From: Candidatus Spyradenecus sp.
GTDB taxonomy: Bacteria > Verrucomicrobiota > Verrucomicrobiia > Opitutales > UBA953
DNA length: 64,000 bases
Reading direction: 5' to 3'
Assembly: GCA_045535075.1 (NCBI GenBank)
Contig: JAZSKX010000007.1
Span: 160,001-224,000, forward strand
Position numbers: made by a program. Of the stretch, positions 15,001 to 18,000 are shown one piece after another (positions within the stretch are counted from its first letter, which is position 1; every line of letters starts with the position of its first letter).

Positions 15001-18000
15001 AATATCGCGCTCGGGAAGAATCCGTTCTCTCTCGACACGCCGGCGCCGAAAGCACAAGTTCAGGACTTCATGAATTCGGAAACCCGCTTCAAAGGTCTGC
15101 AACGTTCCAATCCGGAACACGCGGCAGAACTCTACGCAAAGGCGCAGGAAGTCGTTTCCACCCGATTCCACTACTATCAGGAATCGAAGAAGGCCTACGA
15201 ACCGGCTCCGAAAGCGGAATAATAATCCGCTTTTGACTCCAAAAAGCACGCGTTCCCGCAACGGAGCGCGTGCTTTTTTATTGCTTCATCATCCCGCAGA
15301 TTTACAAATACGGGAACGATTTTTTCAATTCTTGGGCGGACGCCCGCGCCGGCGCGTTTTGTACGGCGTGGAATTGATGCATTTACTCAATTGAATGCTG
15401 ACTTCCGGTGTGTCCGGATGAAAAAATTCCCACAGCGCGATCCCGTAGGCGGCACAAATACGTTCAACTGTTTCAACGCGTAAATGCGAACGACGACCGG
15501 ACTCGATTTGTTGGTAAAACTTGTAATTCATTTCTGCATACTCAGCAAATTCCTCCTGCGAGATTTTAACTCGGAGGCGCAATTGGAAGCCTGATATGGC
15601 GGCTGAGGAACGCGAGAAAGCGCAGATTAAGTTTTATATTTCCGATGAGAAAGTGGCGTTGCTTGATTCGCTGAACTACCATGCTCAGCAGGCAGAAAAA
15701 CTTGGCGGAAAAGATTTAATTCAGCTCGAAGAAGACATTAAGGAGTTTAACAAGGTAGTATCTACCCTTTCCAAGGAAGACTTGGACGAGGTGAAAGCGG
15801 CGTTGAAATCTCAAGACGGAGAGGTTGTAAGCGAGACGGGAACGTCGCAATCAGGCGTGCAAGGCGTAGAATCAGCCGATACGAAGTTTAAAGAATTTAC
15901 AGGTAGTCGCTACGACGAAAACGCAGAGATTAAAATTGTAAAAATCGAGAGTCCGTTGGGACGCGAAACACAGAAAGATACGGCTAAGATTAGGAATGAG
16001 ATTTTAAAGCCTCTCATTGGGCAAGAGGTTGAGGTTAGGTCTGACGGGCGAATCGTAGGAATAAGCAACGATGGTGTTCGTTCTTCTTTAAAGAAGCGGA
16101 ATCTTCATCGTATCGTCTTTACGTCTCTTAAAGAAGTTATTACTGGCAGTCATTATTTTGACTACGCAGAAAGCGACGGGAAAGAAAAGCACAAGAACGT
16201 GCTTGGGCAATTTACGTATATTGTTCCCGTCGAGATTGACGGAGAGGTTTACCGCTGTGAGATAAAGATTGACCGAACGAATATCAGTAATGTCGGTGAA
16301 GGAGCGTTTAAGCAACAAAGTGTATTTAAAATCGCTGACGTTGCCCTGTCCCGTGGACGAACCACGCAGGGTCGTTCGGAAGTGGGAGAAGCTTCCTCTA
16401 CAACGTCAGCTACGATGAACTTTGCTGATTTAATGGAGGGTCGCAAGCCGAATCGTCCGAGCGTGAGCTTCAAGGCGGATATTCGCTTTAGCTCATCTTC
16501 GGCACTTGCGCCCACGCAAGAGATGACGCGAGTAGAGAAGATGAACAGCTTGCTTTCCCGTATCACTAAGACAGCGGGGATAAAGATTGTCCGTGAGAGT
16601 TCGGAGCAGATTCGCAATAGCGCGGAAAATTCACAAGCGGGACGGTATAAAATCGAAAACGACCGCTTTAACGCCGAACTGGAAGCATTTAAGGCGGGAA
16701 CACACAAGGGAGTTCTTCATCTTGGCGTTCCCGGTGCGATTCTCCGTGCAAGAGCAGATTGACGAGCTTCCGCCGAATTGGAAGGTGAGATTTTTACTCA
16801 GGAAAAATCCGAAATCGAGCGGATTGCCACTCTTATGCTCGAATACGGAAACGCATCGTTCCCGCCGGAAGTTGAGCGTGAATAAAAAAGCGTTCCCGCG
16901 AATTTTACGGGAACGCTCTTTTTTAAGCTCTAAGCTTTGATTTACGCCCAAAGATTGGTCGGGTATTCGCCGGCTTCGATGAGCTTGTTGATATTCGCCT
17001 GAACGACTGGCTTGTCTTCCTTGTAGGTAACGCCGAACCACGCGCTGTCCGTGCGGAGAACCTTCGTCGTGGCGAGACCTTCCTTGATGAGCTGACCGAT
17101 CGTCATCGGAATGAAGCATTCGCTCTTGAGCTCGGTGCCTTTTTCCTTGAGGAATTCGAGGAAAATGCGATCGAGGTGGTCAAACAGTTTCGGCGTGCAA
17201 CCCCACATATTCATGGAAACCGGCGTATCGCCCGGGATGTCCTTCGTGGAGCCGTCGTCGTAGGTGTTGCGCCCGTTGTCGCCGACCTTGGAAATCTTGG
17301 TCATTTCTTCGATGTCGGTGAGGAAGCCGTTAGAGTCGGTGTTGCAAACGCCGCGTGCGACGGTGCCGTGCTCGGAGAGCGTGTTGCGCATCAGGAAGCC
17401 GACCATCGAGAAGTCGCTCGAATTCGGGTCGAGATTCGTGAGGTAGTTCGAGAGCACTTCGTAGGAGTTGCGCCCGTAGAAGTCGTCCGCGTTGATGATG
17501 GCGAAGTTTTCTTTGACAACACCTTTTGCGCAGAGAATCGCGTGCGTCGTGCCCCAGGGTTTTTCGCGTCCTTCGGGAACGCTGAAGCCTTCCGGAAGCT
17601 TGTCGAGCGTCTGGAACGCGAAATCGACGGGAACGGGAAGGTTCTTCTTGGCAATCATTTCGCGGAAAGCTTCTTCGAAGTCCGGACGAATGATGAAGAC
17701 GACTTTGCCGAAGCCGGCGCGAACGGCGTCAAAAACGGAATAGTCGAGAATCGTTTCGCCGGAGGGACCCATCGGATCCATTTGTTTAAGTCCGCCGTAG
17801 CGGCTGCCCATACCTGCTGCAAGAACGAGGAGTGTAGGTTTCATAGTTATACTTTGTGTTGGATTGTTGAATTTGAATAAAAGGGTGAATTCGCCGAAGA
17901 GTCTACGCTCCGGGGCTTCTTGCGTCAATTTTAAAGGACTTTCGAGAGTTCATTATTTGCCTTTACTTAAAGAAGTCACCGAGCGAGCCGAAGCCGCCGG

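Follow-up and report, generated by a model that had tools for sequence, protein, structure and literature searches.

A stand-alone GlmU(Cc)/GalY/3PNN-type nucleotidylyltransferase in a gut Opitutales bacterium, a probable N-acetylhexosamine-1-phosphate uridylyltransferase

Described relatives of the enzyme

According to the accessible text of Renzi et al. 2015, Capnocytophaga canimorsus lacks GlmM and the classical GlmU and needs external GlcNAc (PMC4358021). In this bacterium, Ccan_15070 is essential unless the uridylyltransferase domain of E. coli GlmU is supplied, and E. coli GlmU compensated in full for its deletion. The purified protein, named GlmU(Cc), formed UDP-GlcNAc in vitro out of UTP together with GlcNAc-1-P, and GlcNAc-1-P is the sole substrate reported in that text (PMC4358021). 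Orthologues were listed for 30 of 45 Bacteroidetes genera. The survey concerned Bacteroidetes; 'Verrucomicrobia' is absent from the main text as far as it is accessible, and the same text names neither a kinase nor the structure 3PNN (PMC4358021).

In Akkermansia muciniphila, Amuc_0031, 'galY', was predicted to be a non-orthologous replacement of GalT, on the basis of a phyletic pattern against galT and of clustering with galE (Ravcheev and Thiele 2017, PMC5583593). GalY is a prediction only, made for the GalT step, and the accessible part of that paper does not link it to UDP-GlcNAc. In the available portions of other reports, galactose is toxic to Akkermansia via GalK, as if Gal-1-P were left uncleared (PMC13313206), an 'Akkermansia GlcNAc shortcut' is proposed in an account that names no genes (PMC5902328), and glmS and glmU are missing from Tannerella (PMC5790795). 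The preliminary description of the present gene had cited PMC7725333 and PMC13313206 as treating these steps as gaps, and the accessible parts of both papers agree with that statement.

The only solved structure close to the enzyme is PDB 3PNN, a 'conserved domain protein' of Porphyromonas gingivalis, which belongs to the same family as the 300-aa protein described here. Its record carries no function, and we found no relevant paper citing the code. GalT itself is a HIT-fold enzyme that uses UDP-glucose, so that GalY would bypass the GalT reaction and not copy it. Two known routes resemble the one proposed below in that an anomeric kinase is followed by direct UDP-activation, namely the Bifidobacterium GNB/LNB route (NahK, class II GalT, GalE) and the AmgK/MurU route of Pseudomonas. 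The 300-aa protein is unrelated to the GalT of the former, as no GalT domain or motif was found in it, and it is distinct from MurU, for which the genome has a separate candidate. In a search that lay mostly outside subscription papers, we found no publication that equates GlmU(Cc), GalY and 3PNN, and none that tests the family on hexose-1-phosphates.

The gene at 16942..17844 and its family

The window, that is, the whole stretch of 64,000 nucleotides that was analyzed, belongs to an assembly of 1.95 Mb that is 99.45% complete. The features discussed below are as follows.

16942..17844, minus strand: gene of a 300-aa single-domain GT-A sugar-1-phosphate nucleotidylyltransferase, GlmU(Cc)/GalY/3PNN family (open reading frame and homology)
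16884..16922, no strand assigned: hairpin of 16 pairs with A and T runs on either side, 20 bases past the stop of this gene
17782..17820, minus strand: glycine-rich nucleotide-binding loop, residues 9-21, with R15 and K20 unchanged throughout the alignment (57 of 57)
17611..17613, minus strand: Q78, invariant in the alignment
17539..17562, minus strand: residues 95-102, of which G98-T99 align with G81-T82 of E. coli GlmU (Leu there in GalU)
17476..17493, minus strand: residues 118-123 with D120 and D121, invariant columns
17305..17307, minus strand: E180, invariant, aligned with E154 of E. coli GlmU
17023..17040, minus strand: residues 269-274, with W269, G271, T273 and Y274 invariant in the alignment

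The protein has the architecture of its family, that is, one GT-A domain, a length of about 280-303 aa and no LbH domain. As the preliminary description had stated, 3PNN was the sole strong relative in a sequence search of PDB (E 2.3e-105; the next was GalU, E 5e-4), and no NCBIfam family exceeded its cut-off with this protein. Pfam gave a weak NTP_transferase match, and a search of the ESM Atlas returned generic names only. The 300-aa protein contains no LbH acetyltransferase domain, did not reach the cut-off of TIGR01173 and had no GlmU match at E 0.01. It scored 17 bits with the GalU model TIGR01099, of which the cut-off is 326.8 bits. The MurU models NF045761 and NF045697 found nothing in it at E 0.01, the MurU-like protein of the genome being the product of another gene, and it was matched neither by PF01704 (UDPGP family: UGP, UAP1, USP) nor by PF01087 and PF02744 (GalT, HIT fold).

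The GT-A fold is common to this protein and to bifunctional GlmU, GalU and RmlA, whereas the LbH domain of bifunctional GlmU is absent here. The predicted model (pLDDT 93) matched 3PNN with Z 39.9, TM 0.93 and rmsd 2.1 over 297 residues. Comparison of the model with GlmU, GalU and RmlA gave Z 22-23 for all three, at about 14-22% identity, so that none was set apart. By profile comparison, the probability was 92% for GalU and 7% for GlmU. PDB titles also include RmlA Q83 variants with dATP and dGTP bound.

Across the alignment of 57 family members, 38 columns are invariant, and all 38 are kept in the 300-aa protein. We assume the catalytic role of the loop with R15 and K20 from the GlmU/GalU/RmlA superfamily, and we take D120 and D121 to be the fold's metal-binding aspartate motif. 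Q78 is probably the glutamine that reads the pyrimidine; its comparison with Q76 of GlmU falls at a spot where the residue-level alignment is unreliable. G160, E180 and E242 align with G140, E154 and E195 of E. coli GlmU in a weak profile alignment (probability 7%), and E154, the partner of E180, is presumably the sugar-binding glutamate. The matches of G98-T99, G160, E180 and E242 to GlmU would fit the synthesis of UDP-GlcNAc, given the roles usually ascribed to these residues. Residues 269-274 may close the active site.

The upstream neighbour of the gene is tex, no sugar-related gene adjoins it in its own genome, and a consensus promoter scan gave no signal above chance. The hairpin at 16884..16922 (-27.4 kcal/mol, z -6.3) was matched by 0 of 200 shuffles and is absent from the list of the consensus scan. 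It is probably a two-way intrinsic terminator between the gene and the converging open reading frame at 15596-16762.

Ccan_15070 was placed in the family by means of the termini encoded by the cloning primers in the primer table of PMC4358021. The C-terminal peptide from the reverse primer had its best site at profile position 294 of 300 with 13.1 bits (next, 1.3), and the C-terminal motif closes the sequence in 55 of the 57 family rows but in 0 of 9 other nucleotidyltransferases. The N-terminal peptide scored 10.7 bits at position 2, no better than the 11.0 bits at position 258. The downstream knockout primer encodes a NahK-like peptide, and a similar stretch lies 467-536 bases past the family gene in 20 of 20 NahK loci. 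The gene of GlmU(Cc) is apparently followed by a NahK-like gene.

There was no exact match of the Ccan_15070 primers in metagenome contigs, and 401 Flavobacteriaceae genomes gave only 5 matches, each with three mismatches. Of the 36 loci found with the forward-primer pattern, 21 matched the profile of the family, and 19 of these are full-length. These 19 frames encode 280-281 aa, start 1-2 bases from the forward primer, match the family at E about 1e-88 and end before the C-terminal motif. Their proteins, likely close relatives of GlmU(Cc), are 39-41% identical to the 300-aa protein, and the three that were aligned keep 37 of the 38 invariant residues. The homology to Ccan_15070 was thus found indirectly, through the termini, which fit one profile in both proteins, the NahK-like peptide and the 19 primer-matching proteins. 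GlmU(Cc) also resembles the 300-aa protein in having one uridylyltransferase domain without an acetyltransferase. On these sequence comparisons, Ccan_15070 almost certainly belongs to the same family.

For GalY, the link is given by one phylum genome (G078), in which the family member, 291 aa long from an internal Met, lies three genes away from a 506-aa prolyl-tRNA synthetase and is followed by nahK and an epimerase. The accessible Table S8 of PMC5583593 gives the same lengths for Amuc_0031 and Amuc_0034 (291 aa and a 506-aa ProRS). Since gene order and lengths match, GalY is of the family of the 300-aa protein; orthology to Amuc_0031 is indicated by the gene order, the two lengths and 54% identity. 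The preliminary description had regarded the family as uncharacterised. This must be revised, because a member, GlmU(Cc), was assayed in 2015 (PMC4358021) and GalY was predicted in 2017 (PMC5583593).

Sugar-nucleotide genes in the genome, its relatives and the phylum

The reported absence of GlmS, GlmM, GlmU, GalU, GalT and UDPGP from the genome was confirmed by profile, domain and tblastn searches. The profile search found no GlmU over cut-off, and the only phosphohexomutase reached 46 of 448 bits for GlmM. No GlmS was present in the genome, the SIS matches sitting in frames of 329 aa (KdsD-like) and 210 aa. GalU, RmlA and ManC were not found there. GalT was absent by two Pfam domains, of which the controls responded, and by a motif search. 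A domain search of which the control was silent found no UDPGP protein, and tblastn with 16 UDPGP proteins of the phylum reached E 0.094 at best. In Bacteroides thetaiotaomicron, the searches for GlmU, GalU, GalT and UDPGP gave no control signal at the thresholds applied. A PF00483 search of the genome misses the gene at 16942..17844 itself, and single-family absences were therefore cross-checked with PF12804, tblastn and motifs. The genome encodes only five GT-A nucleotidyltransferases: a KdsB-like and an IspD-like protein (names that we assign from sequence motifs), GlgC, the MurU-like protein and the 300-aa protein.

Demand for UDP-sugars is indicated by MurA, GalK, GalE and NagB, all over cut-off, by LpxA, NagA and GalM, which were identified through BLAST and sequence inspection, and by FnlA-like, WbcJ-like and Epimerase_2 proteins. 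Instead of the four Ugd announced earlier, we found three Ugd-like dehydrogenases and one of TviB/WbpO type, which acts on UDP-GlcNAc. The two NahK-type kinases reported before are indeed present (against NahK of known structure, E 2e-91 and E 6e-61). An AmgK-like anomeric kinase is also encoded, so that NahK is not the sole possible source of GlcNAc-1-P; for the ROK-like protein, the sequence search gave no solved relative.

Of 31 genomes from the same taxonomic family, none had UDPGP or GalU by our searches; 29 had the family gene, 25 had GalK and 28 had GalE. In the genus, GalK is present in 19 of 19 genomes and GalE in 18 of 19. The earlier counts for GlmM (0 of 19 in the genus, 19 of 20 in other families) were reproduced. 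Both genus-member loci that were read contain galM-galK-galE without galT; GalT was searched in the genome itself and in these two loci. In most other Opitutales, an enzyme of UAP1 type is present and GalU is missing.

The gene is carried by 11 sister-genus genomes, 8 of which were examined. It lies directly 5' of nahK in 7 of the 8. The order nagB, ROK-like gene, PIG-L deacetylase gene, family gene, nahK was seen in six, five of which have the epimerase next; a seventh genome has the identical order up to the end of the locus, and the eighth has the epimerase only. In the genome studied here this nagB/nahK operon is scattered, and the NahK gene on contig C15 is the orthologue (65%). In one genus member, nagA is directly 3' of the family gene.

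The MurU-like paralogue, encoded at 234724-235485 of contig C5, was found at E 1e-25 in 27 of 30 genomes of the taxonomic family and in 3 of 20 of other families. In 4 of 5 loci of sister genera it forms a fusion with an AmgK-like kinase, and in 2 of 3 loci from outside it stands next to such a kinase, which points to a role in MurNAc recycling.

At 77 loci, a set that leaves out three loci of the own genus, the genes within 3 kb of the family gene included NahK at 20, GalM at 14, GalK at 9 and an epimerase at 9; the first two numbers agree with the preliminary description, which had given 8 for GalK and 7 for the epimerase. NahK stood beside the family gene at 14 of 29 phylum loci read with 1.5-kb flanks. 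In a quick tree of 137 rows, from which 13 redundant loci were left out, the NahK context occurs in many separate clades, and all 9 GalK contexts fall into one shallow clade of near-identical Bacteroidales rows. The deep branches have poor support, and no conclusion on transfer is drawn from them.

The phylum counts of the preliminary description were also reproduced: the family gene is present in 143 of 151 genomes and in 48 of 51 relatives, and GlmU in 0 of 151. It had presented a UDPGP-family gene as a trait of Akkermansia; in fact, PF01704 proteins occur in 132 of 151 phylum genomes, about 93 being of UAP1 type. They were typed with a rough rule based on score and length of frame, which was checked on 16 sequences. 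One Opitutales protein had matches of E about 1e-82 among the UDP-GlcNAc pyrophosphorylases of eukaryotes, and that of G078 had matches of E 1e-117 among UDP-glucose pyrophosphorylases. GalU-like proteins were found in 33 genomes, 20 of them over cut-off. The combinations were as follows.

Family gene and UAP-like protein, without GalU: 69/151
Family gene, UAP-like protein and GalU: 22/151
Family gene and UGP-type protein: 26/151
Family gene and USP-like protein: 13/151
Family gene and GalU only: 6/151
Family gene alone: 7/151 (the genome studied here, G003, G009, G023, G090, G114, G149)
Family gene absent: 8/151

Kin genomes are not independent, so these counts are patterns and not statistics. 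The family gene is the sole UDP-GlcNAc candidate in 52 of 151 genomes and, with RmlA-like enzymes set aside, the only UDP-glucose candidate in 76. Thus, the statement that it fills a gap of Verrucomicrobiota holds for UDP-GlcNAc in those 52 genomes, and for all three gaps in only 7 of 151. Five of the eight genomes without the family gene also lack GlmU, GalU and UDPGP; RmlA-like and other unassigned transferases are present in them. Arguments by elimination can therefore miss enzymes. Two other ideas were dropped. Open frames of up to 1004 aa had suggested fusion proteins, but the 12 loci that were read, of 13 fetched, showed an ordinary start at a distance of about 300 residues from the stop. 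Internal stops in three family matches were considered as a sign of redundancy, and a real stop was seen in G591 only, which is too little to use.

Proposed reactions and alternative explanations

We propose that the 300-aa protein, as a member of the GlmU(Cc) family, acts as a stand-alone UTP:N-acetylhexosamine-1-phosphate uridylyltransferase; for the step from UTP and GlcNAc-1-P, we put the probability at about 85%. UDP-GalNAc is probably made as well. In this proposal, a kinase of NahK type would first place a phosphate on C1 of host-derived GlcNAc or GalNAc, as homology and the sister-genus operons suggest. The 300-aa enzyme would then convert the sugar-1-phosphate and UTP into UDP-GlcNAc or UDP-GalNAc and PPi, a reaction that has been shown with GlcNAc-1-P for the Capnocytophaga member. 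An epimerase would interconvert UDP-GlcNAc and UDP-GalNAc, and MurA, LpxA and the polysaccharide genes would consume the product. As GlmS, GlmM and the acetyltransferase were not found, an external amino sugar should be needed, and dependence of this organism on amino-sugar salvage is likely. The earlier claim that UDP-GlcNAc arises only by way of NahK is unproven, since a ROK-like kinase with a mutase, or the AmgK-like kinase, is a possible source of GlcNAc-1-P. The claim of a uridylyltransferase that replaces GlmU is very probably right, and such an activity had already been reported for Ccan_15070 (PMC4358021). The activity of that family member, the NahK neighbourhoods in many clades and the small set of five GT-A nucleotidyltransferases in the genome favor the proposal. 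Points against it are the profile comparison, which prefers GalU to GlmU, the fold comparison, which sets none of GlmU, GalU and RmlA apart, the indirect link to Ccan_15070 and the lack of a sugar-related neighbour in this genome.

The activity may be wider. No GalU or UDPGP is found in the taxonomic family, and GalK and GalE are mostly kept there, which leaves the enzyme as a possible maker of UDP-glucose and UDP-galactose as well; by elimination, we give this extension an even chance in this Opitutales family. It would provide a galactose route free of GalT, in which the enzyme would act on Gal-1-P in the forward direction and on UDP-glucose in the reverse one. In its full form, which we consider equally poised between right and wrong, GlmU(Cc), GalY and 3PNN would be one broad-specificity UDP-sugar pyrophosphorylase of the small GalU/RmlA-type fold, unrelated to the USP family of known UDP-sugar pyrophosphorylases. 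Within this gut Opitutales family, as well as in a few reduced genomes, a single protein of this kind would stand in for GlmU, GalU and GalT together and yield UDP-GlcNAc, UDP-GalNAc, UDP-glucose and UDP-galactose. The GalU/GalT part, reached by elimination, is strongest in the taxonomic family of this genome. The rescue of the Ccan_15070 deletion by E. coli GlmU, the GalK-dependent galactose toxicity in Akkermansia and the five genomes without candidates speak against the extension.

The same enzyme could instead be confined to N-acetylhexosamine-1-phosphates, with the MurU-like paralogue, or else an enzyme that the libraries do not recognize, as the source of UDP-glucose and UDP-galactose. 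This keeps the core proposal and denies the extension, and we hold it at somewhat less than even odds. It agrees with the single substrate reported for Ccan_15070 and the complete rescue by E. coli GlmU, with T99, which follows GlmU and not GalU, and with the conserved neighbours, which are amino-sugar genes, the GalK context being a single clade. The pairing of the gene with a UGP-type protein in 26 of 151 genomes and with a GalU-like one in 31 suggests a division of labour, and the MurU-like gene is retained in the taxonomic family (27 of 30, against 3 of 20 elsewhere). However, 69 genomes have the gene and a UAP1-type enzyme without GalU, and 7 have the gene alone; a maker of UDP-glucose is needed in all of these. 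RmlA and ManC were not found in the genome, and the MurU-like protein is tied to AmgK.

Two further readings would set the core proposal aside. If the protein acted as GalY was predicted to act, on galactose- or glucose-1-phosphate, UDP-GlcNAc would have to come from the MurU-like protein, fed with GlcNAc-1-P made by AmgK or NahK. The galT-complementary phyletic pattern and the galE clustering in the accessible account (PMC5583593) favor this, as do GalU, which comes next to 3PNN among the sequence families named in PDB, and the UAP1-type enzymes, for GlcNAc, of most other Opitutales that lack GalU. We nevertheless regard it as improbable, because a family member acts directly on GlcNAc-1-P in the part of PMC4358021 available, an operon with nahK and nagB occurs within the taxonomic family, and the family gene is the sole candidate for UDP-GlcNAc in 52 of 151 genomes. 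A different nucleotide or sugar, such as GTP and mannose-1-P, after divergence from the characterised member, appears still less credible. The identity to the primer-matching proteins is only about 40%, and the genome has neither ManC nor RmlA by our searches, but all 38 invariant residues are kept, the gene is single-copy and near-universal, and MurA and LpxA would be left with the MurU-like protein as their only source of UDP-GlcNAc. MurU is described as specific for MurNAc-1-P, which counts against the GalY-type reading.

The 300-aa uridylyltransferase proposed here is one more representative of a family with a main activity that is already demonstrated, and its core function is in print. 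What is new is the joining of a tested essential enzyme, a predicted substitute for GalT and an unannotated crystal structure into one family, which is very common and yet has no NCBIfam name. The pair of nahK and galY is the obvious gene candidate for the 'Akkermansia GlcNAc shortcut' as outlined in the accessible text of PMC5902328. If hexose-1-phosphates are also used, the family would explain why galK and galE occur without galT in many gut bacteria, and it would offer a compact tool for UDP-sugar synthesis.

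Genes around the nucleotidyltransferase gene in the window

The genes that lie around the nucleotidyltransferase gene of the GlmU(Cc)/GalY/3PNN family (16942-17844, minus strand) are as follows.

Neighboring genes in the window
7021-11103, plus: GH2 beta-galactosidase with an F5/8 domain
15596-16762, plus: LPD3 (polyvalent-protein) domain ORF of 388 aa, converging on 16942-17844
20476-22257, minus: protein of 593 aa
22301-23479, minus: short Rho-like protein of 392 aa
25333-38142, plus: repetitive protein of 4269 aa with a PEP-CTERM-like tail (labeled by sequence inspection)

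The GH2 beta-galactosidase would be a source of galactose for GalK, and the LPD3 ORF is apparently a vestige of mobile DNA. The 593-aa protein matched no entry in the Pfam and NCBIfam searches, and a frame similar to it immediately precedes the family gene in G563, another member of the genus.

The conserved protein after nagB

A conserved ROK-like protein of 470 aa is encoded about 3 kb beyond the window end.

227077-228510 of the same contig (C8 of G000, the genome under study): ROK-like protein; counterpart at locus L257:1611-3017

This protein lies directly downstream of nagB, as it likewise does in the operons of sister genera. Its ROK match was faint (E 0.004), and a search by sequence for a solved relative found none. 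We think that it is probably a GlcNAc 6-kinase or regulator, in either case undescribed.

Amino-sugar and UDP-sugar enzymes in other genomes

Four genomes of the same family as G000 carry an AmgK-like kinase and a MurU-like transferase fused in a single frame, and in G000 itself the two genes are separate and distant from each other. A plant-USP-like pyrophosphorylase (family f18) was found near the GlmU(Cc)/GalY/3PNN family gene in G017 and G092, and in G089 these two genes are convergent.

L249:2054-3781 (also in L250, L251 and L252): MurU-like/AmgK-like fusion, one frame of 574-679 aa
L129:1741-3531 (G089): plant-USP-like pyrophosphorylase of 600 aa

GlmM is kept in 19 of the 20 other Opitutales families in the search of relatives, despite GlmU being found nowhere in the phylum sample; an enzyme other than GlmU would acetylate glucosamine phosphate there. 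The searches of five near-complete genomes (G039, G048, G093, G111 and G132) detected neither GlmU, GalU and UDPGP nor the GlmU(Cc)/GalY/3PNN family; each of them has an NTP transferase of 240-280 aa outside the assigned types. In G591 (locus L273), TAG stands in place of the codon for the invariant E180 of the family gene, which is either a true inactivation or an assembly error; this genome also carries a UAP-like gene.

The Capnocytophaga and Akkermansia genes

Primer 7447 in Table S4 of PMC4358021 suggests that the gene just downstream of Ccan_15070, which encodes GlmU(Cc), is one for a NahK-like kinase; the word "kinase" is absent from the main text of that paper. For Amuc_0031 (GalY of Akkermansia muciniphila), we compared the annotation with the matching gene of G078.

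L118:6965-7873 (G078): GlmU(Cc)/GalY/3PNN family gene, full frame of 302-303 aa

By this comparison, the annotated length of 291 aa places the start of Amuc_0031 within the glycine-rich loop, meaning that cloning from the short annotation would drop the first strand of the protein.
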